Below, piece after piece: positions 6,391 through 59,875 of a stretch of 64,000 nucleotides of DNA (the first letter of the stretch is position 1; the number at the start of each line of letters is the position of its first letter). This stretch comes from an uncultured Gammaproteobacteria bacterium. GTDB taxonomy: Bacteria; Patescibacteriota; Patescibacteriia; UBA9570; XYC2-FULL-38-9. The DNA lies in contig CAYFNF010000004.1 in assembly GCA_964344485.1 (NCBI GenBank), forward strand, positions 66,069 through 130,068, written 5' to 3'. Both the position numbers and the translations under genes were made by a program. The notes below the pieces were generated by a model, which worked only from the letters and a program-made list of their open reading frames with translations, was not told the DNA's origin and made no database searches.

Positions 6391-6984
6391 ATGATAAAGA
6401 ATCTTAAACAATTGAAGCCGCTCCCCTGGCACGAGGTGTTCTCTGTATGGAAACAGACAGAGGGCAGTGACCCATCTTGGCAGCAGACTGCAACCGACGT
6501 GAAAGGCTGGGATTCATGGGAACAGTGGCGGACGTATAAAACAGACAAGCTGGGATTCCCTGAACGTGAGTGGGCGCTGTATGAAATTGAACGACCAATG
6601 ACGACTGTACCAGCGTTCTTGGTCGGTCCTTTTAAAACTTGGCAGCAGCTGTTTGAGAAAAAGATGAAGCAGTCGTTCAAAGACATCGCAGAACATCATA
6701 CTGCTTGGGCAGAACAAAATAAGTCTATTACATATCTTCAAGCGCATTTCCCAGAGCAAACACAGATGATCGGTATGTACTATCCAAAGATGGATGCAGT
6801 CATTGTCTTTGAAGGACATCATCGCGCTGCAGCAATTGCGCTGTCTGTGCATCAAGAATCTATGATAGAATTCAGTAGTAATCCAATGATAGCGCTGACA
6901 ACCATAGACACAGCAGACTACGAGATGTTGAAAGAGCTAGCAACTCAATCATCAAAAAAAGAGGATGTTATTACGGGCGGTTAG
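6391..6984 (+). CDS. Hypothetical Trp-rich protein. The ORF-track start at 6178 runs through tRNA-Ala, so it is taken as an artifact and the start is called at the ATG at 6391.
   Basis: ORF 6178..6984. The stop TAG at 6982..6984 overlaps the 5' end of the tRNA-Val copy. Confidence 0.45.
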   Translation: MIKNLKQLKPLPWHEVFSVWKQTEGSDPSWQQTATDVKGWDSWEQWRTYKTDKLGFPEREWALYEIERPMTTVPAFLVGPFKTWQQLFEKKMKQSFKDIAEHHTAWAEQNKSITYLQAHFPEQTQMIGMYYPKMDAVIVFEGHHRAAAIALSVHQESMIEFSSNPMIALTTIDTADYEMLKELATQSSKKEDVITGG

Positions 6985-7138
6985 CTCAGTTGGTTAGAGC
7001 GCACGATTCACATTCGTGAGGTCACTGGTTCGGTCCGAGTATCGTCCACCCGAGAATTAAATAAATCATATGCAAGGTAAAGAGTTCCCAGGATCAGCAG
7101 CAGGAATGATTCTGCTTAATGGTACTAATGAGGTTTTT
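6929..7138 (+). repeat. Copy 1 of a roughly 210 bp direct repeat. It comprises the 3' end of the upstream gene, tRNA-Val(CAC), and the 5' start of the NUDIX gene.
   Basis: Read directly. It is near-identical to 8478..8683 except for a few substitutions and one small indel. Confidence 0.8.
6975..7048 (+). tRNA. tRNA-Val(CAC) copy 1, degenerate. T-loop TTCGGTC has lost A58, the T-stem has a mismatch, and the acceptor has two G-U pairs. Probable pseudo-tRNA.
   Basis: Aligned by eye to the intact copy at 8520..8593. Confidence 0.55.
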
Positions 7139-7156
7139 CTATACAACTGTCGCTAA
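7070..7156 (+). pseudogene. Truncated 5' fragment of the NUDIX hydrolase gene (MQGKEFPGSAAGMILLNGTNEVFLYNCR*), duplicated along with tRNA-Val.
   Basis: The first roughly 22 codons match the start of 8615..9043, then it diverges and hits a stop. Confidence 0.6.
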
Positions 7157-7185: not shown

Positions 7186-8451
7186 ATGAAAGATGAAATC
7201 AAGCAAGATTATAAAATAGCAATCGACAAATACTTTTATGATTGTAAAAAAGAGATCTTGTCACAATTGAGATATGCAAAAAACAATGTCCCATATTACA
7301 AAGAGCTTCTTGCTCAAACTCGTATTGATGCCATTAAAACATATGATGATTTTTCAAAGGCGGTTCCTGTGCTAAATTCAGATACAGTTGCAGAGAAGCC
7401 ATTGGAAATGATTGGAGATGGTGCGCACATAGTATTTAAACGCACAAGTTCGTCCGCTTCTGGGAAGAGTAAGGAAATTTTTTTAACAAAGTCGGATATA
7501 GAGAGCTGGACGGAAAATGGAAGATTATCCATAACGCCGTATTTTAAAAGTGGAATGACTGTCACTCATTCATATAGAGAGGAAGAGTATTATTTATCAG
7601 GGCTTGATGACGCTGTGCTGTATTCGGCTGGCAAGATAACAACATTCAGAGCTGATGATATCAAAGATATTTATAGAAAAGTTACAAAAGCAGATATTTT
7701 GTTGGATTACTCTGAAATGATTTATTATATATCTGAACAAATAAAGAAGTATTCAGCTCAAAATGAATTGAACCAAGAGCGTAGTTTGGTTGTGTCCTAT
7801 ACAGGCGAATATTTAGATGACGAAGATATACAAAAAATTATAGATAATTTTGCGGAAGCAAATATTTCAGTGGAAGTATATAGCGAGTACTCTTTATCAG
7901 AGGTGGGGCCAGTTGCATGCAGTAGTAGCACAGAAAAAAATATTTTTAAACCAATTTATACCGAGGTTTGTTTTGTAGAAATTGTAAATGATGAAGGAAA
8001 GCCATCGAAAGATGGTGAAATTGTAATTACGGTGTTAAATAGAGAGGGCACGAATCTTATCAGATATACTTCAGGAGATTTAGGAGAAATAGTACTAAGA
8101 AATGGTGTGCCAAATATCTGGCTCAAGGGCAGAAAAGGGGGTATTAAAATTGCTAGTTTATTTATTCATCCACAACATATAGTATCAATTATTAGAAAAA
8201 AGGTTGGTGCAGATTTTTTCTGCTACATTGTTGCAGAAAAGCAGAAATATTTTTGTAAAATTGACATCAAGATTATCACACCAAGCAGGATTGATAATGT
8301 TGGCATAAAAGATTTTTTGCTAAAAGAATTAGGGTATATAGACGATATAAAGAAGACAATGGATATGGATGTTACAATAGAACAACGAAAGCTTACGAAT
8401 GTGGAGCTTCGCAAGGCTTTCTCATTTGTTGTAAATGGAGAATGGCTTTAA
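7186..8451 (+). CDS. PaaK/CapK/coenzyme-F390-synthetase-like adenylate-forming enzyme, located between the two repeat copies.
   Basis: 421 aa. TSSSASGKSKEIFLTKSD matches the (S/T)SG(T/S)TGxPK adenylation motif. RYTSGDLGE matches YRTGD. It is notably AT-rich. Confidence 0.5.
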   Translation: MKDEIKQDYKIAIDKYFYDCKKEILSQLRYAKNNVPYYKELLAQTRIDAIKTYDDFSKAVPVLNSDTVAEKPLEMIGDGAHIVFKRTSSSASGKSKEIFLTKSDIESWTENGRLSITPYFKSGMTVTHSYREEEYYLSGLDDAVLYSAGKITTFRADDIKDIYRKVTKADILLDYSEMIYYISEQIKKYSAQNELNQERSLVVSYTGEYLDDEDIQKIIDNFAEANISVEVYSEYSLSEVGPVACSSSTEKNIFKPIYTEVCFVEIVNDEGKPSKDGEIVITVLNREGTNLIRYTSGDLGEIVLRNGVPNIWLKGRKGGIKIASLFIHPQHIVSIIRKKVGADFFCYIVAEKQKYFCKIDIKIITPSRIDNVGIKDFLLKELGYIDDIKKTMDMDVTIEQRKLTNVELRKAFSFVVNGEWL

Positions 8452-8477: not shown

Positions 8478-8683
8478 TGAAAGAGCTAGCAACTCGATCA
8501 TTAAAAAAGATGTTATTACGGGCGGTTAGCTCAGTTGGTTAGAGCGTACGATTCACATTCGTGAGGTCACTGGTTCGATTCCAGTATCGCCCACCCGAGA
8601 ATTAAATCGAACATATGCAAGGTAAAGAGTTCCCAGGATCAGCAGCAGGCATGATTCTGCTTAATGATACTAATGAGATTTTT
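8478..8683 (+). repeat. Copy 2 of the roughly 210 bp direct repeat, with an intact tRNA-Val and an intact NUDIX start.
   Basis: Read directly. The upstream part retains the last codons (..KKDVITGG*) of the gene that ends at 6984. Confidence 0.8.
8520..8593 (+). tRNA. tRNA-Val(CAC), intact.
   Basis: Acceptor GGGCGGT/ATCGCCC, anticodon loop TTCACAT, T-arm ACTGG-TTCGATT-CCAGT. Confidence 0.85.
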
Positions 8684-9043
8684 TTAATGAGGCGTTCATC
8701 TAATACCAGGAATGACCATAATATGTGGAGTATTCCAGGAGGTCGTGTAGAGATGAATGAGAAAGTCGAGGACGCTGCAAAGCGCGAAACGCTAGAAGAA
8801 TGCGGTGTGACCGTTGAAGAGGTACAGCACCTTGGATTCGTGGATCATATATTGAATGAGTATAGTCAGCACTGGATTCCGCAGATTTTCCTAGCGACCA
8901 AATGGACAGGAGATCCCATGAACTGCGAAAAAGACAAGTGTGAAGAAGTAGGATGGTATGCACTGGATCATTTACCAGAGGATCGCTCTCAAGTGGTGAC
9001 AGATGCAGTGCAGTTGCTACAATGTTCCATAGAGAACAAGTAA
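8615..9043 (+). CDS. NUDIX hydrolase
   Basis: Nudix box GGRVEMNEKVEDAAKRETLEECGV. Confidence 0.8.
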   Translation: MQGKEFPGSAAGMILLNDTNEIFLMRRSSNTRNDHNMWSIPGGRVEMNEKVEDAAKRETLEECGVTVEEVQHLGFVDHILNEYSQHWIPQIFLATKWTGDPMNCEKDKCEEVGWYALDHLPEDRSQVVTDAVQLLQCSIENK

Positions 9044-9542: not shown

Positions 9543-9556
9543 GGAGCACTGCGAAT

Positions 9557-9574
9557 AATGTTCCACGTGGAACA
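9557..9574. repeat. 18 bp perfect palindrome ATGTTCCACGTGGAACAT (copy 1).
   Basis: Read directly. An identical copy is at 10255..10272. Confidence 0.9.
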
Positions 9575-9586
9575 TAAGAGAGATAC

Positions 9587-9659
9587 GGGCCATTAGCTCA
9601 GCTGGCAGAGCGTTCGCATGGCATGCGAGAGGTCATCGGTTCAAGCCCGATATGGTCCA
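9587..9659 (+). tRNA. tRNA-Ala(GGC)
   Basis: Acceptor GGGCCAT/ATGGTCC with G3:U70, anticodon loop ATGGCAT, T-loop TTCAAGC. Confidence 0.8.
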
Positions 9660-9679
9660 CATCAATTAGCAAAAAGCAT

Positions 9680-9994
9680 ATGACAGAACCAATACAAATG
9701 AAGCGAAAAGAGGCTCAAGATCTAAGAATAATGCGATTAGCACGAGTAATAGTAATGTTAATTGCTCTAGGAGCAGCAATGGGAGAGTATGCTGTTTCAC
9801 GCCCACCACGGAGACCGGATGAGGATCCGCATTCTGAGGTGGATAATGAAATGTCTAATATAGGATTTGAAAAAGTGTCCCAGGCTCAAGTGCAAGAGGA
9901 AGTTGATAAACTATCCCCTGGACTGAAGCAGCAATTATCCGTTGCCATTGATGCAATTAGTGCGGCAATAAGCCAATCTGAAGAACAGGTGTAG
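9680..9994 (+). CDS. Small protein with an N-terminal TM helix and an acidic C-terminus. Start is taken at the first Met after the tRNA.
   Basis: ORF track 9623..9994 overlaps the tRNA, so it is trimmed to the ATG at 9680 (MTEPIQMKRKEAQDLRIMRLARVIVMLIALGAAMG...). Confidence 0.4.
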   Translation: MTEPIQMKRKEAQDLRIMRLARVIVMLIALGAAMGEYAVSRPPRRPDEDPHSEVDNEMSNIGFEKVSQAQVQEEVDKLSPGLKQQLSVAIDAISAAISQSEEQV

Positions 9995-10006
9995 AACAAA
10001 ATACCA

Positions 10007-10035
10007 TTGACAAAAGGGGAAAATTGCGCTATCAT
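10007..10035 (+). promoter_or_regulatory. Sigma70-type promoter TTGACA-17 nt-TATCAT in front of the Cys-rich peptide gene.
   Basis: Read directly. It has a perfect -35 and a near-consensus -10. Confidence 0.5.
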
Positions 10036-10088
10036 TCATAATCGTTTGTTGCTGACAGAGTCGCACTAATTATTAACACAATAAATAT

Positions 10089-10196
10089 ATGTGCGGAGAA
10101 GAAAAAGATCCATGCAAATGCGATCCTAACGATCCAAACTGTGATTGCGATCCTAAGGAGGAAGAGAAAAAGAGTGGTTGCGGATGCAGTTGCTAA
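10089..10196 (+). CDS. 35 aa cysteine-rich peptide MCGEEKDPCKCDPNDPNCDCDPKEEEKKSGCGCSC (9 Cys), metallothionein-like.
   Basis: ATG at 10089, TAA at 10194..10196. It is bracketed by the consensus promoter at 10007 and the intrinsic terminator at 10224. Absent from the ORF track because it is under 60 aa. Confidence 0.4.
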   Translation: MCGEEKDPCKCDPNDPNCDCDPKEEEKKSGCGCSC

Positions 10197-10223
10197 AAGC
10201 AATACTACAGTAGTTTATAGAAA

Positions 10224-10254
10224 ACACCCCTGCAAAGAACAGGGGTGTTTTAAT
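10224..10254. terminator. Intrinsic terminator hairpin CACCCCTG-caaagaa-CAGGGGTG followed by a T-run, with A-run and T-run on either side (bidirectional).
   Basis: Read directly. Confidence 0.6.
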
Positions 10255-10272
10255 TATGTTCCACGTGGAACA
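10255..10272. repeat. 18 bp perfect palindrome ATGTTCCACGTGGAACAT (copy 2).
   Basis: Read directly. Confidence 0.9.
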
Positions 10273-11067
10273 TTATAAATACTCTGACTTTGGAATATCC
10301 CTAGCTGGTCGTGCAATACTCCACATGATTTCAAACATACTCCTAAATGTCTGAATAATGTCTTTAGACTCGATTGTTACTGCAAAAGGCACATCAAAGG
10401 AAGCTATTAATAGCGTATTACCAAATATAGCGTTATCACTCGCAAATTGATACTTTTGGTCAATTACTCGTATTTTATGAAATCTACCGTGGTTTCTCTT
10501 TGCCCACTCAATACTGGTTCTATCATGCGTGACTATCTCACGTGCAGAGGTGCTTCCCTGCGCTAACCAATCTACGAAAGCATCGGAAGTCTGTTTTGGT
10601 ATTGCGGTTTCGAACGCTTCTACGTCCACGCCAAAGAAGTCTATCTGTCGGTTCTCTCGAAACATCTTCCAATATAATTGAGTGAATTCTTCTAGCCCGT
10701 AATAAAAGTGTACATTTGGTTTTGACCCTTGTTTTAGGTATAAATCGTCTAAAAAAGGCTTAATTTTACTGAAAGAATCTAACCGCTCTGTTAATTGTTC
10801 TCCTAGAACATTTGGTTCTGCAGGTTCATATATAGTGGTAGAACCCTTTCTAATATGACGAATCAATGCTTGTTCTTGTAGCTCATCAAGTATCACATAT
10901 GTAGTTGAGCGCTTTATCTTCGACTCCCGTGATATTTCCAGTGCTGTGGCTTGCCCTAATTCAAGAACAGCAAGATACACTCTTGCTTGTTTTTCATTTA
11001 GTCCTAGTTGCTCTAACTCTTGAACAAGCTCCATATCTGTCAAAAATAATGTCAACAGATTATACAT
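10273..11067 (-). CDS. TrmB-family transcriptional regulator.
   Basis: N-terminal wHTH LGLNEKQARVYLAVLELGQATALEIS plus a C-terminal TrmB-like domain. Paralog of 41591..42367. Confidence 0.65.
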   Translation of the reverse strand: MYNLLTLFLTDMELVQELEQLGLNEKQARVYLAVLELGQATALEISRESKIKRSTTYVILDELQEQALIRHIRKGSTTIYEPAEPNVLGEQLTERLDSFSKIKPFLDDLYLKQGSKPNVHFYYGLEEFTQLYWKMFRENRQIDFFGVDVEAFETAIPKQTSDAFVDWLAQGSTSAREIVTHDRTSIEWAKRNHGRFHKIRVIDQKYQFASDNAIFGNTLLIASFDVPFAVTIESKDIIQTFRSMFEIMWSIARPARDIPKSEYL

Positions 11068-11199
11068 ACATTTTAAGGAAATACCATATATAAGTCAAAA
11101 AGCGCCGAAAGTTTTGACAACAATTTTTCTGCGCGGTATGTTCTTCTGTTCTTCTTGGTGTGGGAATCGCCGAGCAGAACATGCTTTGAGGAGGCAGAG

Positions 11200-11727
11200 A
11201 TGAAGCACTCGAAGTTGGCTCTGATCCTGGCAAGCCTGAGCCTGATGCTGGTGATCCCGAGCGTGTCGCGCGCGCAAGAGGAGAAGCCTGAGCCCGCGGT
11301 CAACCTGTTCACCGGAGCGTCCGTGGTCTTCGGTCTTCCGGACCAAGGAGCGCTCATGGGGTACGGATCTGTGGGCGTGGCCGTGCTGATCCCGGTGCGC
11401 GGACGCTTCGCGATCATCCCGGGCGGAGGGTTCGAAATAGCCCCAAAAATGGGCAATTTCGGGCCTTTCTGCAGCGTCGCGTTCGACTTCGCACTCAGCG
11501 ACGTGGTGGCTCTGGACCTGATCGTGGGGCTGGCGTATGACTACGATCCGGTCCTGGGACAGGAGATCGGCAAGCCGCACCAGGGCTACGTCATGGCCGG
11601 GCCAGGCCTCTCATTCCTGCTGCCCAATGGTATGAGCGTGGCGCCTGCGCTGCTCTACTCCGTGAACCTGCAGGGACTGGGGCACTTCCTGAGCCCTAGC
11701 GTGAGCGTGAACATCCCGCTGCCGTAG
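11200..11727 (+). CDS. Secreted Gly-rich beta-rich protein of GC-rich island B.
   Basis: Signal peptide MKHSKLALILASLSLMLVIPSVSRA. SD GAGGAGG lies 5 nt upstream of the ATG at 11200. Confidence 0.5.
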   Translation: MKHSKLALILASLSLMLVIPSVSRAQEEKPEPAVNLFTGASVVFGLPDQGALMGYGSVGVAVLIPVRGRFAIIPGGGFEIAPKMGNFGPFCSVAFDFALSDVVALDLIVGLAYDYDPVLGQEIGKPHQGYVMAGPGLSFLLPNGMSVAPALLYSVNLQGLGHFLSPSVSVNIPLP

Positions 11728-27970: not shown

Positions 27971-29317
27971 ATGAAATATGTTCACGCATTTCGATGGATG
28001 GTCAGTCTTTCTGTCGTACTATTCTTTGGTGTTCAAGCAACTACTGCAGCAGAACTGCCAGCCGCGCCAACTATTATCTCACCAGCACAGCAGAGCGTTC
28101 ATAGCACTGCCCTGCCGGTGATCACTGGTGTTGCACCCGCAGACATGCGCATCGCAGTCTATATTAATAATCAATTTAATGGATATGCAGATACGGTCAG
28201 CGAGAGTCAGGGTGTACAGAGCTTCTCGTATACTCCGTTTCTCTCCTTGTCCCCGGGTACACACACCGTGATGGCACGCGCTGAAGATGTAGACAATTCG
28301 ATTCGCAGCAACAAGAGCAAGGCATATACATTTACTATTGAGACAGAACCGCCCGCACCTACGCTACTGGATTCTGTGGTTGACGCAGACTCTTCTTGGA
28401 GTCAGCCGTGGGTCACTGGCGTAGCGCCGAGCGGCACGACAGTCAATATGTATATTGACGGAGCGTTCAACGGCACTGCTACTGCTAGTAACCATGAGTC
28501 CGGAACCGGCAGCTTTGCGTATCAACCGTTTCTGGTGCTATCACCAGGTACGCATACCGTTACTGCTACGACTTTGGTAGAGCGCGTTGACGGAACAACG
28601 CGCATGAGCAAGCGGTCTCAAGCGTTTTCGCTAAAGATTGCTGCTCCAGTACAACGTTCAAATACCAGCACTGCTACAACAGCAGCTGTAAACGCGGATG
28701 AGCAAGTTGAGGTCGAGCAGCAAGAGGAGAAGCTATGGCCAGAACCAGCAGAAACAGAAGAGCCTGTTCAAGAGGAAGCGGAAGAGTCTGTAGACGAGAT
28801 TGTCGAGGAGGTCGCTGAAGAAGAAAAGCAGGGCGATTCTGAGCCAACTCCTGTGGAGGAAGCCCCAGAAGAGCACAGCGAACAAGTTGCTGAAAGCACA
28901 AGCCAAGAAAGTGAGGGAGTTGTCTCTCCGGATGGAAACGGTGTTGCAGAGCAGGAAGAAGACAAAGAAGTGGAAGGTGCTACCGGTGTCGAAGAAGACA
29001 CTGAAGAAGATACCGAAGCGTCGACAACGCGCAGGAAAACATTCGGCTGGATTCTCTTGATCGCCGCGTTAGCGATATTCCTGTATCAACTACGTCGACG
29101 AAAGAACGAAGAGAGTCAAGAGTCACCGGACGTCACTGTACTCTCGGATGAAGAAGCGCAGCAAGTAAAGAAAGACAACGAGCAACAGCTCGAATTTCAT
29201 GCACCGAAAGAGAATAAAAATATCGAAGTGATCAAAAAGGAGGAGAAATCTCAATCAACAGACAGTTCCGAGCAGTCGTCCTCGCAAGAGACGAACCAGG
29301 AGCCGAAGTCAGAATAA
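27971..29317 (+). CDS. Surface protein with a signal peptide, two Ig-like domains homologous to a domain of the giant protein, an E-rich acidic linker, a TM anchor and a charged tail.
   Basis: AGGAGG upstream of the ATG at 27971. Domain ..NGYADTVSESQGVQSFSYTPFLSLSPGTHTV.. resembles ..NGTFQAASDPSGTASFSYEPFLDLDLGEHSV.. in 12274..17247. Confidence 0.65.
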   Translation: MKYVHAFRWMVSLSVVLFFGVQATTAAELPAAPTIISPAQQSVHSTALPVITGVAPADMRIAVYINNQFNGYADTVSESQGVQSFSYTPFLSLSPGTHTVMARAEDVDNSIRSNKSKAYTFTIETEPPAPTLLDSVVDADSSWSQPWVTGVAPSGTTVNMYIDGAFNGTATASNHESGTGSFAYQPFLVLSPGTHTVTATTLVERVDGTTRMSKRSQAFSLKIAAPVQRSNTSTATTAAVNADEQVEVEQQEEKLWPEPAETEEPVQEEAEESVDEIVEEVAEEEKQGDSEPTPVEEAPEEHSEQVAESTSQESEGVVSPDGNGVAEQEEDKEVEGATGVEEDTEEDTEASTTRRKTFGWILLIAALAIFLYQLRRRKNEESQESPDVTVLSDEEAQQVKKDNEQQLEFHAPKENKNIEVIKKEEKSQSTDSSEQSSSQETNQEPKSE

Positions 29318-29350
29318 TATCACTCGAATAGAACACACATCACCACACAA

Positions 29351-29378
29351 ACCGCTCATTGTAGCGGTTTTGTGTTTG
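29351..29378 (+). terminator. Intrinsic terminator AACCGCT-cattgt-AGCGGTT followed by a T-run.
   Basis: Read directly. Confidence 0.55.
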
Positions 29379-29420
29379 CGTTCATACAGGATGCAGCACG
29401 AACGCAGGAGGGTATAAAAA

Positions 29421-29441
29421 AACTGCGTGTGTGGCGCAGTT
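29421..29441 (-). terminator. Hairpin AACTGCG-tgtgtgg-CGCAGTT preceded on the + strand by A7. On the - strand this gives a T-run, making it a terminator for the island D genes.
   Basis: Read directly. Confidence 0.5.
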
Positions 29442-29444
29442 GGC

Positions 29445-29852
29445 CTACTGGCCGTCGGGCTCGTCGCCGGACTCGGGTGCGGTGACGCGCTGCCTGGGGC
29501 GGTCGAAGCTGATGATCAGCACGGCCATGCTCCCGGGCAGCACCGTGATCTCGAGCGCGATGGTCTTGCCCACGACCTTGGTGTTGTCCTCGCGCGAGGA
29601 CACCAGCAGCTTACCGTTGACCTCGCACTCACCCATGACCGCGCGGACCGTCACCGCGAACGGCAAGGCATCGAACGCGTGCTCGCCCTCGTGGACGTGC
29701 ATGGTCAGGAACTCCCGACCCGTGGGCGTGGCGTCCTGCACCAGCGTAACCCTGCCGCCGACCTCGAGCGCACTCACCTGGTGGGTGTGCCCCCACTCAC
29801 CGCTGTCTTCCTTGGTGCGGTAGATCAGCGTGAGCCTCATGTCCATCGACAT
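29445..29852 (-). CDS. Hypothetical His-rich, possibly cupin-like protein of GC-rich island D. Start taken at MSMDMRLTL.
   Basis: GAGGAGGA SD upstream of the ATG at 29852. GHTHQ...E and HVHEGEH motifs. The cupin call is tentative. Confidence 0.4.
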   Translation of the reverse strand: MSMDMRLTLIYRTKEDSGEWGHTHQVSALEVGGRVTLVQDATPTGREFLTMHVHEGEHAFDALPFAVTVRAVMGECEVNGKLLVSSREDNTKVVGKTIALEITVLPGSMAVLIISFDRPRQRVTAPESGDEPDGQ

Positions 29853-29987
29853 GCAATCCTCCTCGACCTGCCTGCATCTTCGCAGACTGTCGTATTGTAT
29901 CCGAAGACAAACATGATTGTGTGTGTTTGTCAAGGCATTTTAAGTATAAAAAAAGCGCGGTCTGAAGGCTCCTCCTGCCTCAGTGCG

Positions 29988-30978
29988 CTAGTCCTCCAGG
30001 ATCCGCAGTACCTCGAAGTTCGGGTGCTTGGCCGCATGCGCGAAGAACGGGAGGCACTCGTACGTGAACTCCCCGTTGAACACGGTCTGGTAGTAGAGCC
30101 AGGAGTAGAGCGCGTGATCGAAGTCGTCATCGTCCAGCACTCGCTCGCACATCCCGGTGCCGGGCCGGTACTCCATCCCCCAGGCGTTCGCCGCATCGCA
30201 CGTCTGCATGTAGGTCTCACGCAGCAGGAACCACGTGAACTCGCAGACCGGCTGGTTCGACCCGTAGCGGTCCCAGCCCCGTGCCATGATCTCGGCCTCG
30301 GTGTGCGAAGCGTCACGCCAGGCGTGCAGCAGCAGGGTCTCGAACCAGAGGTCCAGCAGCGCGGCCGGCACGTCGTCCTGCTCCATGTACGTGAGCGACT
30401 CGATCTGGAAGAAGATCACCGGCGACTCGGTGTTGTCGTGCGAGATCGGCTGGAACTTGACCAGCCAGGGCCAGGACACGGGTGATCAGGTCCGTGTAAC
30501 CGCTCTCGGGTAGGTTGCGCACCAGGTAGAGCGCACGCTCCTCCAGCAGCGCGGTCTCGGTGCCCGGCAGCGGTAGGTCCTCGTTCCCGGGCAGGGTGAG
30601 TGCGGGCAGTGGCGGGAAGGTGGTGGGCTCTTCCATGACCGCGGGCAGGGTCGGCTCTTCCTCGAGCGGCCAGTCCAGCTCCATCTGCAGGTACGAGCGC
30701 AGCTCCTGGTCGCTGAGCACAGCCCAGGCCATGCCGTCGATGCGGAGCAGGTCGGAGAGCCAGAGCATGTCGGCCTGGTCCAGCTCCTGATTCGACGCGA
30801 CCTGCGTGTTGACCTCGTCGGATCCGATCCTGGGCGACGGGATGAAGGTATGCGAGGTCGGCGGCGTAGGCTCCAGGAAGCTCACGATCACCGCGGACCA
30901 GCACACCAGCAAGGCCAGCATCAGGACCAGTACGGCCACGAGATGGCCGATGCGGAACTTGGTGTTGGGAAAGGGCAT
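29988..30978 (-). pseudogene. Membrane-anchored protein of island D, read in two overlapping frames (30313..30978 and 29988..30479). An apparent frameshift lies near 30480..30510.
   Basis: The N-terminal frame (MPFPNTKFRIGHLVAVLVLMLALLVCW...) degenerates into an Arg/Ala-rich read after about ...YTDLITRVLALAG. The other frame there opens into a plausible protein sequence (..PVIFFQIESLTYMEQDD..). GGAGGAG SD upstream of the ATG at 30978. Confidence 0.4.
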
Positions 30979-31150
30979 GTCGTCTCCTCCACGAGTAGTT
31001 GTACTGCTATGACAACAGCACTGGAAATGACGCGAACCAACTGCCATTCTCCACTACTGTTCTCTGAAACCATAACCGTAATAAACGCACTGAAAAAGTC
31101 AAGAAATATAGGGATTTCTACCACCAATTTGGCCCTAAAGCACGTAATTA

Positions 31151-31178
31151 TTGACTTTTTTTCGCCATACCCTATAAT
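31151..31178 (+). promoter_or_regulatory. Sigma70-type promoter TTGACT-16 nt-TATAAT upstream of nusA.
   Basis: Read directly. Confidence 0.45.
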
Positions 31179-31234
31179 CAATACGCTGGTATCTAACGAT
31201 GCTAGTTTTTTAATGCATAAATAAACATATTTAT

Positions 31235-32788
31235 ATGCCAAAAAGCGAATTAGCACTGGCTATCGAACAGGTGTGCGATGAGAAAAACATCCCGTACGAG
31301 TCAGTGATCGAATCAATCGAAGCAGCTCTTGCAGTTGCGTATCGAAAAGAATTCGGGAATAAACTGTTAAATTGTCGCGTGGAGTTCAATCCAGACGATG
31401 GGTCCACACGAATTTTTGACGTGAAAGAAGTCGTTGAAGACCCAACCGAAGAAGAGTTGGAGGAGCTTGAGCGCAAAGAAAAAGAGCGTGCGGAAGGAAA
31501 AGACAGAAAAGACAAGCCAGAAGAGAAGAAAGAAGAGGAAAAGAAAGAGAAAGAAAAAACTGATGACGAAAAAAAGGAAGGCGAAGAAGGCTCTGAAGAG
31601 GACGAAGAAGAACAGCGGCGCTTTAACCCGCGCACTGATATCCCTATTTCTGAAGCAACCAAAATCAAGGACGACGCAGAGATCGGCGATGAAATCATTA
31701 CTGAGCTCCCAGTTCCAGAAGGATATGGACGTGTTGCAGCACAGACAGCAAAGCAGGTCATTATCCAAAAATTGAGAGAAGCAGAACGTGAGACCTTGTT
31801 TAATCAGTACAAAGATCGTGTAGGCGAGATTGTGAATGCATCGGTTCAGAGAATTGAAGGTCGCATGCTCTATATGGACTTAGGCCAGGCAACAGCAATC
31901 ATGCCGCCGCCAGAGCAAGTTCCAAATGAAAACTACAAGATTGGAGATCGATACAAAGTATATCTACGCTCTGTGGAGAAAACGAACAAAGGGCCAGAGA
32001 TTATTGCATCACGAGCAGCAGCTGAAATGGTAAATCAACTGTTTAGCATGGAAGTACCAGAGATTAATTCAGGATCTATTGAAGTGAAGTCAGTTGCTCG
32101 CGAAGCTGGATCCCGTTCTAAGATTGCAGTACAGAGCCTTGCTGACAACATTGATCCGATCGGATCTTGTGTTGGGCAACGCGGTGCTCGCGTACAGACC
32201 GTCATGAACGAACTCGGCGGAGAGAAGATTGATATCATTGAGTTTAGTGATGATGCAGTGAAGTTCATTGTGAATGCACTCTCTCCTGCAAAGATTATCT
32301 CAGTGCAGTTAGATGAAGAAGAGCAGACCGCAAAAGCATTTGTGAATGAAGACCAGCTCTCGCTTGCTATCGGTAAGGGTGGGCAGAACGTTCGTCTGGC
32401 AGCTAAGCTTAGCGGCTGGAAGATTGATGTGGTAAAGGAAGATGAAGAAGGTGCTGAATCTGAAAAAGAAGATGAAGACAAACCAGTAGACGATCAAGAC
32501 GCAGACGCAGACGATGCAAAGGAAGAAAAAACCACAGAAGCAGTAGAAGAGACTGAAGAGAAAGAGGAAAAGAAAGAGGACGCCAAAGAAAAAGAAGAGA
32601 AAATAGAAGACGCCCCAGAAGAGGAGTCCGAAGACAAGAAGGACGAGGAAGAGAAGGAAGAGGACAAAGACGAAGAGGAAGAGAAGAAGACGGTAGCAAA
32701 AAAAGCAACAAAGAAAACCGCGGCAAAGAAGACCACAAAGAAGACCACAAAGAAGCCCGCGAAAAAGAAGAAGATAAAAAATAATTAA
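31235..32788 (+). CDS. nusA: Transcription termination/antitermination factor NusA, with a long Glu/Lys-rich insertion and a Lys-rich C-terminal tail.
   Basis: N-terminal MPKSELALAIEQVCDEKNIPYESVIESIEAALAVAYRKEFG. S1 and KH regions (AIGKGGQNVRLAAKLSGWKIDV). Confidence 0.9.
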   Translation: MPKSELALAIEQVCDEKNIPYESVIESIEAALAVAYRKEFGNKLLNCRVEFNPDDGSTRIFDVKEVVEDPTEEELEELERKEKERAEGKDRKDKPEEKKEEEKKEKEKTDDEKKEGEEGSEEDEEEQRRFNPRTDIPISEATKIKDDAEIGDEIITELPVPEGYGRVAAQTAKQVIIQKLREAERETLFNQYKDRVGEIVNASVQRIEGRMLYMDLGQATAIMPPPEQVPNENYKIGDRYKVYLRSVEKTNKGPEIIASRAAAEMVNQLFSMEVPEINSGSIEVKSVAREAGSRSKIAVQSLADNIDPIGSCVGQRGARVQTVMNELGGEKIDIIEFSDDAVKFIVNALSPAKIISVQLDEEEQTAKAFVNEDQLSLAIGKGGQNVRLAAKLSGWKIDVVKEDEEGAESEKEDEDKPVDDQDADADDAKEEKTTEAVEETEEKEEKKEDAKEKEEKIEDAPEEESEDKKDEEEKEEDKDEEEEKKTVAKKATKKTAAKKTTKKTTKKPAKKKKIKNN

Positions 32789-34804: not shown

Positions 34805-36115
34805 ATGCAAGTTACAAAAAAAGACCTCCCAAAAAGCCAGGTCGAGCTTACGATCGAGCTTTCTGTTGAGGAAGTACAACCGTTCGTAGACAAGGCTGCA
34901 AAGCGTATTGCGAAGGATGTAGACATCAAGGGCTTCCGTAAAGGAAAGGTTCCATATGATGTACTCGCAAAGAACGTTGGAGAAGCCACGATCTATGAAG
35001 AGGCGTTCAATGACATCGTTGAAGATGTCTATCCAAAAGCTGTTGAGCAAGAAGACCTTCAAGTCGCCGGAAAAGCAAACATTGATCTGGAGAAGATCGC
35101 GCCAGGAAATCCAGTAGTCTTTAAAGCAACCGTTCCTTTGATGCCAAATGTGTCACTGGGCAATTACAAGAAAGTAAAAGTCAAGAAAGGTACAGCAAAG
35201 ATGGATGACGCAAAGTTTGAAAAAACACTGAAGGACATCCAAAAGATGCGTGCAAAAGAGAAGGTCGTAAACCGAGAAGCAAAAGAAGGTGACAAAGTAG
35301 TGCTAGACTTTGAAGTCAAAGTCGGCGGCGTAGTCATCGAGGGCGGATCCGCTCAGAAGCAGCCGCTGGTGATCGGCGAGAGTCAATTCATCCCAGGATT
35401 TGAAGAGGAGATCGTTGGATTGAAGAAAGACGATGAGAAAGACTTCGAGCTGCAATTTCCGGAAGAGTACAAGAAGGAGGTTGCTGGAAAGAAAGGAGCA
35501 TTCCACGTGAAAGTACATGACGTCTTTGAGATCGAGCTCCCAGAGCTAACAGACGAAATCGCAAAAGAGATGAGCTTCGAGAACCTAGACAAGATGAAAG
35601 AAGAGCTGCAAAAAAATATCATGCGCGAACTCGAGCAGAAAGAACAGGAGAAGTACGAGAAAGAAGTGATTGAAGCTATGATGAAAGAGGCAGAGATTGA
35701 TGATGTCCCAGAGCAGCTGATTGAGGATGAAGCAGAAAAGATGGTCCAAGAGTCTGAACATGAGATTTCTCAGCAAGGACTAAAGTTTGATGACTATCTC
35801 GAGCATCTCGGGAAGAAGCGCGATGAACTCAAAGAAGAGTTCAAGCAGAATGCAGAGAAACGAATTCAAGCAGCATTAGTCATGCGTGAGCTCGCTGTAG
35901 TTGAAGACATTAAGGTCGATACCGCTGAGATTGATAAAGAGCTAGAGGAAATGAAGAAGATGTATGATCAGTTGCCTGAGATGGCGGCACAATTCGACGC
36001 ACCACAGTATCGTGCGCATATAGAGAACACGATGATGCACAAGAAGACGTTTGAACGCATTGGGAGCTTCTCGGGCAAGGGCGACGCAGAAGACAAGGAC
36101 AAGAAAGCAGAATAA
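34805..36115 (+). CDS. tig: Trigger factor
   Basis: N-terminal MQVTKKDLPKSQVELTIELSVEE ... GFRKGKVP. Its start codon abuts the hppA stop. Confidence 0.85.
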   Translation: MQVTKKDLPKSQVELTIELSVEEVQPFVDKAAKRIAKDVDIKGFRKGKVPYDVLAKNVGEATIYEEAFNDIVEDVYPKAVEQEDLQVAGKANIDLEKIAPGNPVVFKATVPLMPNVSLGNYKKVKVKKGTAKMDDAKFEKTLKDIQKMRAKEKVVNREAKEGDKVVLDFEVKVGGVVIEGGSAQKQPLVIGESQFIPGFEEEIVGLKKDDEKDFELQFPEEYKKEVAGKKGAFHVKVHDVFEIELPELTDEIAKEMSFENLDKMKEELQKNIMRELEQKEQEKYEKEVIEAMMKEAEIDDVPEQLIEDEAEKMVQESEHEISQQGLKFDDYLEHLGKKRDELKEEFKQNAEKRIQAALVMRELAVVEDIKVDTAEIDKELEEMKKMYDQLPEMAAQFDAPQYRAHIENTMMHKKTFERIGSFSGKGDAEDKDKKAE

Positions 36116-36120
36116 ATAAA

Positions 36121-36150
36121 CAGCCGGCAACCCCGGCTGTTTTTTGATAA
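36121..36150. terminator. Intrinsic terminator CAGCCGG-caacc-CCGGCTG followed by TTTTTT.
   Basis: Read directly. Confidence 0.65.
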
Positions 36151-36180
36151 AAAAATCGAGCGCAGACTCCTCTACAACGC

Positions 36181-36798
36181 TCACTGCGGGAAAATGCTGT
36201 GTACCCCTTCACCCTGTGGGTAGCCGATGTAGGCACCCTCCTCGTCCCAGCGCGGGTCCGGGCGGTAGAACCGAGACACGGTCGCGTAGAACGGGTGCCT
36301 GTACCGCTCCTCCGTGACGCCGGTCTCCAGCACGTGGACGTACTCGATGACCTCATCGACCTGGATGACCGCCGGGGACTCCTCTGGCGTGACCTGCGGC
36401 AGGTCTACGGTGCCGTAGAGCAACCACCCGCCGTCCTTGCAGTAGAAGACGAGAAGGTCGCTGGTGATGGTGTCCTCGGGCATGGCGATGTCGATGAACT
36501 GCGGATCGTAGATCAGGTCTGTACCACCACCGATCACCGGCGGGATGGTGTTCACGCCCACGCCCCACTGGTTGTGCCGGTTGGGCTCCACCCGAACGTC
36601 CGTGATCTCGGTCCAGCGCTCCACCCAGGGCGAGTGGAAGGCCGGGTCCGCGAACTCGCACACCACGGGCACGGCTTCGGTCAGCACGGGCTCGTCGGCG
36701 GGGTCTTCGTCGTTGCACTGGCATCCCGTGGCCAGCACCGCACCCAGCATCAGCAGTCCGCTCAGGCTGCGCCAGCCCGTCAAGTCAAACAGTCGCAT
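36181..36798 (-). CDS. Lipoprotein of GC-rich island E. Start taken at MRLFDL; lipobox LATGC.
   Basis: GGAGGA SD upstream of the ATG at 36798. Signal peptide MRLFDLTGWRSLSGLLMLGAVLATGC. Confidence 0.5.
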   Translation of the reverse strand: MRLFDLTGWRSLSGLLMLGAVLATGCQCNDEDPADEPVLTEAVPVVCEFADPAFHSPWVERWTEITDVRVEPNRHNQWGVGVNTIPPVIGGGTDLIYDPQFIDIAMPEDTITSDLLVFYCKDGGWLLYGTVDLPQVTPEESPAVIQVDEVIEYVHVLETGVTEERYRHPFYATVSRFYRPDPRWDEEGAYIGYPQGEGVHSIFPQ

Positions 36799-36947
36799 TC
36801 GCTCATCCTCCGTGTCACACGTCGCAAGCACCGTGCTATTAACTCGCGCTTCAGCTCATCCACGCGCAAAGTGACAACATATCATAAATAATAAAGTCGC
36901 TTTTGTCAACGTAACGGCGCTTTTTCGCTATCACTATTGAGGAGATC

Positions 36948-37802
36948 ATGTATAATATAAGCATGCCATTGATCGGAACCCATGTATCTTCAGCAGGAGG
37001 GGTGCGGAATGCACCAATTTTTGCACATCAAGAAGGGTGTGAGACATTTCAGTTCTTCGTAAGCCCCCCACAGACCTATAAAGTGAATGAGATCTCAGAC
37101 GAAGAAGTTGCTGCGTACAAGAAGAACTGCAAGCAGTATGGATTCACCGAGGCATTTGTTCACGCACAGTACTTGATCAATCTTGCGTCCCCGAACAATC
37201 GCATTCGTTACGGTTCAATCAACTTGTTACAAAAAGGACTGGAGGCATGTAACAAGCTTGGTGTGAAAGGATTGATGTTTCATACTGGTACAGCAACTGG
37301 CCAGCCCAGCCGGTCAACCGCGATGAAAAATGCAATCGAGTCGCTCAATAAAGTGCTTGATGGATACGACGGTTCTACGAAGTTACTCATTGAAAATGCA
37401 GCGGGTGCAGGGGCAACACTTGGGAAAACTTTCAAAGAAGTCGGACGACTACTTCACGGAGTCAAGAACCAGTCAAAGATCGGAGTATGCTTGGATACTC
37501 AGCATTCATTCGCGTCCGGATATGATTGGCGGACCTCTGCAAGCACAAACAAAGCGTTGCAGGAGTTCTCAAAAGAGATAGGTATGCGGAAATTATACGT
37601 CGTGCATGTAAATGATTCTAAAGTAGATTGTGGTACAAATCGAGACAGGCACGAACATATCGGAAAAGGAAAGATCGGCAAGCAAGGGTTTGATATTCTT
37701 ATTAATCATCCAAAGCTGAAAAACAAACCGTTTATTCTTGAAACCCCTCCTCAAGGACGTGAAGGTGACATGGCAGTATTAAAACGCTTACGAAAGAAAT
37801 GA
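36948..37802 (+). CDS. nfo: Endonuclease IV (AP endonuclease family 2).
   Basis: HAQYLINLASP, LIENAAG and HVNDSK motifs. Confidence 0.8.
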   Translation: MYNISMPLIGTHVSSAGGVRNAPIFAHQEGCETFQFFVSPPQTYKVNEISDEEVAAYKKNCKQYGFTEAFVHAQYLINLASPNNRIRYGSINLLQKGLEACNKLGVKGLMFHTGTATGQPSRSTAMKNAIESLNKVLDGYDGSTKLLIENAAGAGATLGKTFKEVGRLLHGVKNQSKIGVCLDTQHSFASGYDWRTSASTNKALQEFSKEIGMRKLYVVHVNDSKVDCGTNRDRHEHIGKGKIGKQGFDILINHPKLKNKPFILETPPQGREGDMAVLKRLRKK

Positions 37803-38575
37803 AACTGACTTTATTAGGAACTGGAAATCACTTCCCTGACCACGCAGTCGGGTCTGCAGGGTATGTGTTGGAACATCAGGACACCATGCTGAAGTTAGAT
37901 TTCGGTCGAGGGAATCTAATGAACATGGCAGCAGCAGGGCTGAGCTGGAAGAAGATTGACGCAGTGTTGCTATCACACGTACACCCAGATCATATATCAG
38001 ACCTAATTCAATATTTACAAGCGTATACCTTGATACAGGTTGATGGAGTGGTTAAAAGTTATCATGTGACCGACGCTGACGTGAAAGAGATTGTTTTATA
38101 TGGACCACGAGGGCTCTCATCTTTTTTTAACCACTTACGCATGGTGACAATTACAGAATGGAGCGTAATTCCAGAGGTGAAGGAAGTATACGACGATATC
38201 TGGACGATCGGTGGAATTGCAATTTCATCTACACCAGTTGAGCACTTTACTGACTCTGTTGCGTATCGGTTTGAAGCAAACGGAAAAACACTGTGCTATA
38301 CTGGAGATGCATCCTTGAACGATAACCTTATCACATTAGCAAAAGATGTAGATGTGCTGCTAGCTGAATGCAGTATGACACCGGGTTCAGACTTCCATGG
38401 TCACCTCGCCCCAGAGTCAGTTGCAGAGCTCGCAAACAAGGCAGGGGTGAAGAAAGTGGTGCTCACGCACTACCCTGGAGACCCGCAACAACGGCAAAAG
38501 CGCGCTAATGCAGTAATAGAATTATTTGACAAAGAGGTGATAATTGGAGAAGATTTAATGGAGATAGAGATATAA
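37799..38575 (+). CDS. Metallo-beta-lactamase-fold hydrolase (RNase Z/ElaC-like).
   Basis: LLSHVHPDHISDL motif. ATGA start/stop overlap with nfo. Confidence 0.65.
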   Translation: MKLTLLGTGNHFPDHAVGSAGYVLEHQDTMLKLDFGRGNLMNMAAAGLSWKKIDAVLLSHVHPDHISDLIQYLQAYTLIQVDGVVKSYHVTDADVKEIVLYGPRGLSSFFNHLRMVTITEWSVIPEVKEVYDDIWTIGGIAISSTPVEHFTDSVAYRFEANGKTLCYTGDASLNDNLITLAKDVDVLLAECSMTPGSDFHGHLAPESVAELANKAGVKKVVLTHYPGDPQQRQKRANAVIELFDKEVIIGEDLMEIEI

Positions 38576-42367: not shown

Positions 42368-42524
42368 GTACTAGGGGATAATAGGCTAAGATTAGCTATT
42401 TATTCGGATATTCACACTGTGGTGGTATTTGCCACTCATCAATAATGATATATGATTTGCTGTCTTTAGTCAACGCATAGACCGCGACTAAAGAAGTACT
42501 TCACAACGAACAGGAGGTTGAGAC

Positions 42525-58237: not shown

Positions 58238-59875
58238 ATGGCTTTTTTCAGAAAAACCGGTATGATATATGAGGTATCGAAGTCTGCATACATGAATATT
58301 CTAACGCGAACATCACACATACACGTTGCCTGCATGATGCTTCTCTCAATAGCATGTTTTTTTATTGGGCCATTCGTTCAGCGCGCAGAAGCGCACCCAC
58401 TCGATATCACGTTTACCTATTTAAACGTAGATTCTGAGACACAAGCTATTTCAGGTACTACCAACCTGCACGCGTTCGAAGTCGGCATGCTCCTGGAGAA
58501 CAACGGTATTGAATATGAAAGCATAAGTGATGCGTACCTATCGGGTTGGTTGTTCATCGATTACATCATGGAGACTATATATGTGCAGAATAATGGAGAG
58601 GCGTGTCATTTTAAGACGGCAAACGTCTTTGAACAGGACGAGATTACGATTATGGCTGAGGGGTTTGAGATCCAGTATACGATGGAATGCGCTCAGGATT
58701 TAGATATTGTCTATTTTTCCAATACCATGTTCACGGAGCTGGAGCTACAGACCAATCAGATGTACTTTGTGGTGGATGGTAATCTAGAGGAGCCTCGATA
58801 TAAGAAAATTCTGACCAGCAAAGTAACCTCTGATGCATTTGACTTTCAAGATCCAGAGAGAACACTGCAGTATCAAAATGACGCAGACGATGACGGACTT
58901 ACTGACGAAGAAGAAGAGGCCTATGGAACGAACCCTCACCTTCCGGATACGGACTTTGACGGATATGCAGACTTGGATGAAATAGAACAAGGGTGGTATC
59001 CACTGGATCCAGAAGCAGCAGTTGAGCTCATGCAAGGCGAACGCGTCCCGTTAAAAGAAGCGCAGGAGAAGCAGCAGGAATATCAGGAGTATCAAGAGCA
59101 GCAAGAAGGAGTGATCTTCTCTTCTGAAAATATCGCAGGAGGTGGTTTTATTAAAAATACGAATGCATTCAGAACCGGGAAGCTAAAACGATATCTAGGA
59201 AAGATTAGCGAGCTCTTTGATGAAGGATCGGCTCTATCGATTCTATTCATCTTGTTGATAGCATTCGTCCTGGGAGTACTACATTCTGTAACTGCTGATC
59301 ATGGCAAGAGCATTCTCGCTTCTTATTTGATTGAGCAGGACAAGAAGATGAAAGATGTGCTGGTATTTGCCACTTCATTGACCGCAACGCATTTATTGGA
59401 TGTGGTGGTTCTGGGCATTGCGTTTAAGCTATTCTCTCTAGTGAGCGATATCTACAAGTATATCAACACTATTCAGACCGTTGGTGCATTTGTGCTTCTT
59501 GGGATTGCGGTGTTCTACTTATTGCGCAACATGTTCCCAAAGAAGATCAAGATTGGAGTAAAGAGAAAAGGCCCGATCCTTGGTGTTATCGCTGGACTTG
59601 CACCGTGTACCATCGGTTGGTCTGTGATGATTGCTATTATTAGCTTAGGCAAAATCAATTGGATCGTGCCGATTATACTCGTATTTGGTTTAGGGATCTT
59701 TACTACGTTAGTAGTGTTTGGATTTGTGGTATTGAAGGTAAAAGAAAAGATCATCAACAAAAGGAAGAATATCGCGCGCACAGCATCTATTATCTCAGCG
59801 CTATTACTACTTGTGGTGTCTATTTATTTGGTATTAGCAGCATTGGGTATTATTGTACGTAGTCCAATAGTGTAG
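58238..59875 (+). CDS. Fusion protein: an N-terminal secreted domain with an acidic Ca-binding-like D-rich segment, fused to a C-terminal multi-TM NicO/RcnA-like metal-efflux domain.
   Basis: LHSVTADHGKSILASYL matches the H..(E/T)(P/A)(G/D)HGK signature of NicO/RcnA recalled from memory. Five to six hydrophobic helices at the C-terminus. Confidence 0.4.
   Translation: MAFFRKTGMIYEVSKSAYMNILTRTSHIHVACMMLLSIACFFIGPFVQRAEAHPLDITFTYLNVDSETQAISGTTNLHAFEVGMLLENNGIEYESISDAYLSGWLFIDYIMETIYVQNNGEACHFKTANVFEQDEITIMAEGFEIQYTMECAQDLDIVYFSNTMFTELELQTNQMYFVVDGNLEEPRYKKILTSKVTSDAFDFQDPERTLQYQNDADDDGLTDEEEEAYGTNPHLPDTDFDGYADLDEIEQGWYPLDPEAAVELMQGERVPLKEAQEKQQEYQEYQEQQEGVIFSSENIAGGGFIKNTNAFRTGKLKRYLGKISELFDEGSALSILFILLIAFVLGVLHSVTADHGKSILASYLIEQDKKMKDVLVFATSLTATHLLDVVVLGIAFKLFSLVSDIYKYINTIQTVGAFVLLGIAVFYLLRNMFPKKIKIGVKRKGPILGVIAGLAPCTIGWSVMIAIISLGKINWIVPIILVFGLGIFTTLVVFGFVVLKVKEKIINKRKNIARTASIISALLLLVVSIYLVLAALGIIVRSPIV

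Follow-up and report, generated by a model that had tools for sequence, protein, structure and literature searches.

We analysed a 64-kb stretch of DNA (64,000 nucleotides of contig CAYFNF010000004.1, hereafter the window), which carries at positions 10007-10254 a small gene for a cysteine-rich peptide of 35 amino acids (aa). With modest confidence, we read this peptide as a metallothionein-type metal-thiolate micro-protein, representing a sequence family that appears to be unrelated to known metallothioneins. Judged by sequence, the family has so far been found only in genomes similar to those of Candidatus Kerfeldbacteria, members of the Candidate Phyla Radiation (CPR). An initial annotation, made from the sequence of the window, described a stand-alone promoter-peptide-terminator unit at this place, and all three parts were located, together with a short leader:

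10007..10035, forward strand: promoter of sigma-70 type, with the -35 hexamer TTGACA at 10007-10012, a 17-nt spacer and the -10 hexamer TATCAT at 10030-10035
10036..10088, forward strand: 5′ leader, short and A/T-rich, ending in ...ataaatatATG
10089..10196, forward strand: small open reading frame (ORF) of 35 aa plus stop, MCGEEKDPCKCDPNDPNCDCDPKEEEKKSGCGCSC
10221..10254, forward strand: intrinsic terminator with a 12-bp stem, a 7-nt loop and a T-run

The promoter, TTGACA-17-TATCAT as originally described, matches the consensus at 11 of 12 positions and is the top-scoring site in the 8-12.5 kb region of the window. Promoter-like sites of this quality (at least 11/12, both strands) are found five times in the window, compared to 1.25 expected from shuffled sequences. 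Transcription of the peptide gene would start near position 10042. The hairpin at 10221..10251, which had been annotated as a strong terminator, contains 12 pairs and has a folding free energy of -19 kcal/mol (z = -4.3; none of 200 shuffled sequences folds equally well). It is preceded by an A-run and followed by a T-run, and thus can terminate both the peptide gene and the convergent TrmB-family gene, the end of which is located at 10273. Taken together, the promoter, the A/T-rich leader, the 35-codon ORF and the intrinsic terminator constitute a predicted monocistronic unit of approximately 210 nt, and the whole unit recurs in related genomes, as described below. The Rfam scan of the window returned only tRNAs at threshold and no family over the peptide unit, while a permissive scan of positions 9950-10300 produced only a sub-threshold match to RefA9, located over the terminator (34 vs. 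49 bits).

It should be noted that no Shine-Dalgarno sequence is found in the leader. A motif of this kind precedes only 5 of the 40 long ORFs of the window and is absent in the other 35, the leaders being A/T-rich; therefore, its absence is no argument against translation of the peptide, and initiation that is independent of the Shine-Dalgarno sequence seems to be the rule in this genome. The A/T-rich start context, (a)aatatATG, recurs in two of the related loci (L003 and L009, see below).

The ORF translates exactly to the peptide that was initially reported, MCGEEKDPCKCDPNDPNCDCDPKEEEKKSGCGCSC, and is the richest in Cys among the 771 ORFs that have 25 aa or more in the six frames of the window. 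The number of cysteines, given earlier as nine, is eight (positions 2, 9, 11, 18, 20, 31, 33 and 35; 23% of residues), although the CxC, Cx6C, CDC and CGCSC motifs are all present as described. The peptide contains four CxC motifs and no aromatic or aliphatic residues, and its isoelectric point (pI) is 4.3. A single-sequence AlphaFold model, which is of low confidence (mean predicted local distance difference test 63.5), has no secondary structure; the peptide is thus predicted to have no autonomous fold.

Relatives were obtained from contigs carrying orthologues of the TrmB-family gene, which was used to anchor the synteny. Scanning GTDB species genomes with the same anchor gave six loci only, and the useful relatives came from the contigs with TrmB orthologues. 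The 63-aa homologue in L009 and the L006/L031 homologue were found by a sliding-window scan for Cys followed by reading by eye, and not by a filter on Cys fraction. The same kind of unit was found in six further lineages, listed here with the identity of the TrmB-family protein to that of the window, the peptide, and the promoter:

L002: TrmB 64%; MCGEETKPCECDPNDEDCKCEPEKKEDEEKEGGCCCC, 37 aa, 9 Cys; TTGACA-17-TATTAT, directly after a tRNA
L003/L008: TrmB 58%; MGCGCGCGPETPEEKPKDPEAACECGEPNCDCE, 33 aa, 7 Cys; TTGACA-17-TAATAT
L027: TrmB 50%; MSEDEKKPCGCDPKDEDCKCNPEEDKCEDDDCDCGCGK, 38 aa, 8 Cys; TTGACA-17-TATTAT
L029, cut by the contig end: TrmB 51%; ...QCDSEGKCTCEKGDSEHQHGTQEGCAC, at least 27 aa, at least 5 Cys; promoter region outside the contig
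L009: TrmB 49%; MGCGANCACEAGRGEIVEAKTPEGKDITEELKHGKCENPECKEGKCESCTAEAEEGHGDHCAC, 63 aa, 9 Cys, 3 His; no TTGACA promoter, a parS site in its place
L031 (also L006/7, L030 and L032-33; RIFOXY-type Kerfeldbacteria): TrmB 48%, P0008 orthologue ~3.9 kb away; MEDEKCTCECNCPEGKCVCEDGCDCDCNQEQTK, 33 aa, 9 Cys; TTGACA-17-TATCAT

Two neighbours of the unit in the window are relevant to the comparison:

9587..9660, forward strand: tRNA-Ala(GGC), the upstream neighbour of the peptide unit, conserved
10273..11034, reverse strand: TrmB-family helix-turn-helix regulator (PF01978, E = 4.7e-15), 253 aa from the second ATG or 264 aa from 11067

The closest relatives of the window TrmB-family protein are from Candidatus Kerfeldbacteria (48-64% identity), and the window genome is placed in this CPR group. 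In seven lineages of Kerfeldbacteria type, the unit keeps its place beside tRNA-Ala(GGC). This tRNA gene is located upstream of the peptide in L003, L009, L027, L031 and L032, and the L002 contig contains only the 3′ end of an unidentified tRNA, directly before the promoter. L003 and L027 have the promoter right after tRNA-Ala, and L031 has one parS site between the two. Both promoter hexamers and their 17-nt spacing are kept at the equivalent place (TTGACA-17-TAnnAT) in L002, L003, L027 and L031. Terminator hairpins of unrelated sequence are found at the matching position (-15.4 kcal/mol in L002, -22.7 in L003 and -14.8 in L027). The unit and the TrmB-family gene directly converge on each other in the window, L002, L003, L027, L009 and L029, and in the L031-type genomes the next gene is UMPH-1, which has the same orientation and lies beyond the peptide's own terminator hairpin. 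A TrmB-family gene flanks the unit wherever the downstream flank lies on the fetched contig, although it is not always the same orthologue. The RIFOXY-type Kerfeldbacteria have a second TrmB paralogue (L031 9964-10770, L006 6964-7770), which is 25% identical to the window TrmB and convergent with the peptide/UMPH-1 unit, with parS copies inside it and just after it.

The reading frame is conserved in the relatives, and the check by the ratio of nonsynonymous to synonymous substitution rates (dN/dS), which the initial annotation had proposed, indicates purifying selection. This analysis covers the three alignable orthologues, those of the window, L002 and L027. In the 22 N-terminal codons that are aligned without gaps between the window and L002, 10 codons are identical, 5 have synonymous changes only and 7 have nonsynonymous changes, and all five Cys are kept. 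The dN/dS values, calculated by the method of Nei and Gojobori, are 0.12 (window/L002), 0.23 (window/L027) and 0.17 (L002/L027), with synonymous sites near saturation (the proportion of synonymous differences is 0.55-0.68 in the three pairs). The numbers of differences at codon positions 1/2/3 are 5/2/10, 7/3/11 and 2/3/9, for the same pairs. The Cys residues of both CxC pairs are kept in all three peptides while neighbouring residues vary, and Cys2 is replaced by Ser in L027. The ATG and the stop codon are kept, and indels in the linker are multiples of three. In addition, the alignment scores of the window peptide with those of L002, L027 and L003 exceed the scores of all 100 composition-preserving shuffles. 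The openness of the frame was rejected as coding evidence, because several frames are open owing to composition; the evidence lies in the substitution pattern, which argues that the ORF is a genuine protein-coding gene under purifying selection. A lack of conservation of the reading frame in related genomes, which according to the initial annotation would speak against the gene, was thus not observed.

Metallothioneins are a class of small, Cys-rich proteins that bind metals in metal-thiolate clusters, and as of 2020 SmtA (Zn) and MymT (Cu) were the only two bacterial metallothioneins whose function had been investigated (PMC7387436). The composition of the peptides is that of the class. Their size is well below 10 kDa (35 aa in the window, 33-63 aa among seven members). 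Members of the class are rich in conserved Cys set in CxC, CC or CxxC motifs; the window peptide has 23% Cys and four CxC, and the family has 7-9 Cys (14-27%) and two to six CxC. Phe, Trp and Tyr are absent in all seven members, aliphatic residues number 0-4, His is restricted to L009 (three) and L029 (two), and no member has the makings of a hydrophobic core. Asp, Glu, Lys and Pro are abundant, and the pI values are 4.1-4.7. The window, L002 and L027 peptides share the core P-C-x-C-D-P-x-D-x-x-C-x-C-x-P, which leads into a Lys/Glu linker and then a Cys cluster at the terminus (CGCSC, CCCC or CDCGC), and the CxCxC cluster of L003 is N-terminal rather than C-terminal. The first CxC pair lies within residues 3-11 in every complete member, and no member has a signal peptide or a leader peptide.

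The resemblance to small metallothioneins that was initially proposed is therefore supported with respect to composition (small size, 23% Cys, CxC motifs, no aromatics), but no known family was matched. At E ≤ 10, the window peptide had no match in Pfam, including the eukaryotic metallothionein families (PF00131, PF01439, PF11403 and others), or in NCBIfam, and five members scanned had none in Pfam; HMMER bias filters may suppress weak matches of Cys-rich sequences. Searches of the PDB with the sequence and with the family profile found no metallothionein. Profile comparison by hhalign gave probabilities of 2% for SmtA, 2% for the Neurospora copper metallothionein (four aligned columns) and 0.7% for MymT. 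The family also has almost no record in protein databases. A phmmer search of the window peptide against 1.84 billion representatives had no matches, a word-indexed search of 5.8 billion proteins, in which the alignment was padded with real in-frame upstream codons, yielded no candidate, and no called gene matched the window peptide exactly. In a collection of 15 billion proteins, none of the six complete peptides is present as read from its ATG, and the sole entry is an unnamed 35-aa JGI gene call of the L031 gene, made from an upstream start. A degenerate DNA pattern for M-C-G-E-E-x(1-3)-C-x-C-[DE] had 13 matches in JGI metagenomes, all of which were rejected as chance matches inside longer or unrelated ORFs. 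In the full text of the literature searched, metallothionein is not mentioned together with 'Candidate Phyla Radiation', and among the listed matches for both 'Patescibacteria' and 'metallothionein' no title reports such a protein in these bacteria.

Copper metallothioneins of the Neurospora crassa/Agaricus type have ~25 aa and 7 Cys. Features shared with these fungal proteins are the very small size, the 7-9 Cys that are mostly in CxC, the Gly, Ser and Asp between Cys, the lack of aromatics and His, and a single cluster-sized peptide; the C-terminal GCGCSC of the window peptide and the N-terminal MGCGCGCG of L003 resemble the fungal MGDCGCSG...GCSCS. The Kerfeldbacteria peptides differ in being bacterial and far more acidic, in having a Lys/Glu-rich linker, and in the lack of detectable homology. 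With the BmtA/SmtA family they share the state of small cytoplasmic bacterial Cys-rich peptides, which on the SmtA side buffer Zn and Cd (PMC7387436), and both Cys and His are present in SmtA and in the longer variants of L009 and L029. However, SmtA is a 56-aa protein with aromatic residues and a zinc-finger-like fold, encoded next to the repressor SmtB, and none of these features is seen in the Kerfeldbacteria peptides, and the peptides do not belong to PF02069 (Metallothio_Pro), with its Cys9His2 zinc-finger-like domain. MymT, like the peptides studied here, is lineage-restricted, tiny, bacterial and Cys-rich with CxC motifs, and it was reportedly missed by automatic annotation. It differs in containing His and hydrophobic residues and in being induced by copper, whereas no metal regulator is found near the Kerfeldbacteria peptides. 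The function of MymT is copper detoxification (PMC7387436).

If the peptide is of metallothionein type, the following scheme could apply. Transcription of the gene would be strong and largely constitutive, and its translation, like that of most genes in this genome, would start without a Shine-Dalgarno sequence. Five of the six complete peptides have Cys, Gly or Ser as residue 2 (L031 has Glu), so that the initiator Met is probably removed. The peptide would remain in the cytoplasm, since it has no signal peptide and is fully hydrophilic. With no hydrophobic core, it would fold only around metal ions, the 7-9 thiolates arranged as CxC pairs (plus His in the two longer variants) wrapping a soft metal, Zn(II), Cd(II) or Cu(I), into a metal-thiolate cluster. 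Judging from metallothionein domains with 7-9 Cys, the capacity may be approximately three divalent or four to six Cu(I) ions. The metal would be buffered or sequestered in this way, and scavenging of oxidants would be secondary. It should be noted that the Cys clusters are permuted between the N- and C-terminus in L003, and that His stands alongside Cys in L009 and L029; metallothioneins typically evolve in such a modular, low-complexity way.

Several observations weigh against this interpretation. A genetic link to metal homeostasis, which is usual for bacterial metallothioneins although not strictly defining, was not found: no regulator of the ArsR/SmtB, CsoR or MerR type and no metal transporter is adjacent to the unit in any locus examined. 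The promoter looks constitutive, unlike those of smtA and mymT, which are metal-induced. The peptides are unusually acidic, and sequence homology to described metallothionein families was found neither in Pfam, NCBIfam and the PDB nor by hhalign. The peptide gene is absent in a close relative, L004/L005 (TrmB 52%). The similarity of the L031 (14/100 shuffles), L009 and L029 peptides to that of the window is inseparable from composition, as is the similarity between L009 and L029 (6/100), so that the membership of L031, L009 and L029 in the family is based on position, promoter and composition. Finally, several other frames are also open across the ORF, as a result of its purine-rich composition.

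Other functions were considered for the same peptide. It may act as a thiol or redox buffer, i.e., as a sacrificial antioxidant or a reserve of cysteine and sulfur rather than a metal buffer. The organism is not known to make low-molecular-weight thiols of the glutathione type. The high Cys density, the strong and apparently constitutive promoter and the lack of a linked metal regulator or transporter would all suit this role, and the thioredoxin and thioredoxin-reductase genes located a few kb from the TrmB orthologue in L004 and L006 agree with it weakly. However, the conserved CxC geometry and the His found with Cys in L009 and L029 point to metal ligation, and no linked reductase that could recycle the peptide was found; we consider this role unlikely, and it shares ground with metallothioneins, for which a side-activity as antioxidants is known (PMC7387436). 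A role as a small subunit or partner that depends on a metal or cofactor and serves another protein, e.g., as a Zn- or Fe-S-binding adaptor, would explain why the non-Cys core conserved in the window, L002 and L027 exceeds the needs of a pure Cys scaffold, and the high acidity would suit docking on a basic partner. This core is not kept in L003, L031 and L009, and the permuted Cys clusters are unlike a fixed interface. Only the TrmB-family gene is conserved as a coding neighbour, and it is also present without the peptide (L004); furthermore, CxC spacing is not known from zinc ribbons or Fe-S motifs. Such a partner role is, in our view, distinctly unlikely. Both roles, buffer and partner, coincide in part with metallothionein function. 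A more speculative proposal, which we regard as rather unlikely, is a CPR-specific, highly expressed, Cys-rich acidic micro-protein that, rather than being a classical metal buffer, replaces a low-molecular-weight thiol system as a redox or sulfur currency in these minimal episymbiont genomes, or that acquires and hands over a scarce metal from the host cell.

The initial annotation offered a precursor of a ribosomally synthesized and post-translationally modified peptide (RiPP), or a Cys-knot toxin or signal, as an alternative. A short Cys-rich ORF with its own promoter would be compatible with a RiPP precursor or a secreted disulfide-rich signal or toxin, and precursors of the SCIFF/ranthipeptide and methanobactin type are likewise short ORFs with a cysteine cluster. 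The latter, however, have a leader and an adjacent radical-SAM or MbnBC maturase, neither of which is found in any of the seven loci. The window peptide has Cys already at position 2, which leaves no leader, and has no signal peptide and no hydrophobic residues; the seven neighbourhoods contain tRNAs and genes for NUDIX, TrmB, UMPH-1, bactofilin, diacylglycerol kinase and IF-2, and no radical-SAM, YcaO, LanM, MNIO, peptidase or exporter gene. This alternative is thus disfavoured and appears very improbable. We give similarly little credence to a non-coding small RNA or a spurious ORF, or to the variant in which a Cys-codon-rich leader ORF is regulatory and its product irrelevant. The ORF is uncalled by gene finders in most assemblies, it lacks a Shine-Dalgarno sequence, and other frames are open; against this stand the dN/dS values of 0.12-0.23 with an excess of third-position changes, the retained ATG and stop codon, and the indels in threes, while the lack of a Shine-Dalgarno sequence is the rule in this genome and no Rfam family matches. 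In the window, L002, L003, L009 and L027, no gene of the same orientation follows, the next gene being convergent, and UMPH-1 in the L031-type genomes lies beyond the terminator hairpin. There is therefore nothing to attenuate in most loci, where the peptide ORF has its own terminator and the gene beyond it is convergent.

The metallothionein-type reading does not draw on the NicO/RcnA-like metal exporter that the initial annotation mentioned (58238..59875). This gene is located 48 kb away, has a partial, weak NicO match, was not seen within the few kb fetched to each side of the related loci, and adds nothing to the metal reading. The encoded protein is a 545-aa membrane protein with a NicO match over residues 337-428 (E = 1.8e-8) and weak matches to TSP3 and DsbD_2 as well; judged by these matches, the label 'NicO/RcnA exporter' is weakly founded. 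The gene adjoins a GCS2-family (glutamate-cysteine-ligase-like) gene at 56685-58061.

The unit is flanked by two copies of a palindrome:

9555..9577, no strand: parS site, left arm, with the core TGTTCCACGTGGAACA at 9559-9574
10254..10276, no strand: second parS site, with the core TGTTCCACGTGGAACA at 10257-10272, just past the terminator and overlapping the TrmB-family stop codon

The 18-bp palindrome ATGTTCCACGTGGAACAT occurs exactly twice in the 64 kb (9558-9575 and 10256-10273), compared to 0.02 expected. As the arms of a perfect inverted repeat of 23 nt, the copies enclose tRNA-Ala, a 104-aa ORF and the peptide unit. The 16-bp core of the palindrome has the same sequence as the chromosomal parS published for P. 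putida, P. aeruginosa and M. xanthus, and fits the general parS consensus TGTTNCACGTGAAACA (PMC7022226). The palindrome is kept in related loci, clustering in this region in all relatives, often 2-25 nt past the TrmB stop codon, and in L003, L009, L028 and L029 a copy is placed like the second one of the window. It is found at 4770 and 5112 in L003; at 3979, 4780, 4961 and 5402 in L004; at 3268, 3546, 4137 and 4558 in L009 (four copies within 1.3 kb); and at 10309, 10777, 11383, 11853 and 11998 in L031 (five copies within 1.7 kb). Some copies in the related loci are inside genes. Two other explanations of the palindrome, an operator of the TrmB-family regulator and an inversion or recombination site, were dropped in favour of parS, given the match to published sites and the copies inside genes. 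The flanking palindromes are thus assigned, by their sequence, as chromosomal parS centromere sites, and not as a part of the expression unit.

Sites of the parS type are usually located near the replication origin, and the peptide region is probably an origin-proximal, ParB-binding centromere cluster of these CPR genomes. The GC skew turns at ~4-7 kb of the window, where gene orientation also switches. The window shows no enrichment of DnaA boxes (14 matches vs. 15 expected), and for this reason no oriC is claimed there. In L004 (4780-4974) and L005, tRNA-Ala(GGC) lies between two parS sites and is inverted relative to the window, which is consistent with a rearrangement between inverted parS copies.

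The wider neighbourhood in the window is of housekeeping character and includes genes for IF-2, a diacylglycerol-kinase-like protein, bactofilin, a tRNA array (Arg-CCT, Ala-CGC, Val-CAC twice and Ala-GGC), NUDIX, the TrmB-family protein, a 1771-aa beta-helix protein and a CNNM/CorC transporter. Over the ~9.53-11.59 kb that it covers, an ENA contig from an independent assembly (L001) matches the window with 100% identity. Between tRNA-Ala(GGC) and the peptide promoter there is, in the window genome only, an ORF at 9623-9994 (probable start 9680 or 9782). It encodes 71-104 aa, is predicted to have one membrane helix and matches no family; its longest form overlaps the tRNA. A direct repeat of ~210 nt (6929-7141 and 8478-8686, 92-94% identical), which comprises tRNA-Val(CAC) and the first ~25 NUDIX codons, flanks a 421-aa ORF at 7186..8451; this ORF has no Pfam match and presumably resembles a PaaK/adenylate-forming enzyme. 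The arrangement suggests an insertion or duplication at the tRNA. The GC content of the window is mosaic, being mostly 0.35-0.45, with blocks of 0.52-0.60; the GC-rich stretches are 11073-11727 and 2-kb blocks within 1-2000, 28001-32000, 36001-38000, 42001-44000 and 48001-50000. A GC-rich ORF at 11155..11727 has a signal-peptide-like N-terminus, no Pfam match and, unlike most genes of the window, a clear GAGGAGG Shine-Dalgarno sequence. The composition junction at ~11.1 kb is not chimeric, since it is reproduced in the independent assembly L001.

If the peptide binds metal, it would represent a third, unrelated family of bacterial metallothioneins, and even the ~1-Mb genomes of episymbionts would keep a dedicated metal or thiol buffer. 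Peptides of 33-38 aa are easy to synthesise, which makes the hypothesis directly testable. If, on the other hand, the thiol-currency or metal-handover proposal were true, the gene would belong to an unrecognised and almost entirely uncalled gene family of ultra-small bacteria, located in a parS cluster beside tRNA-Ala. The peptide gene also illustrates how a conserved and probably highly expressed gene escapes annotation.

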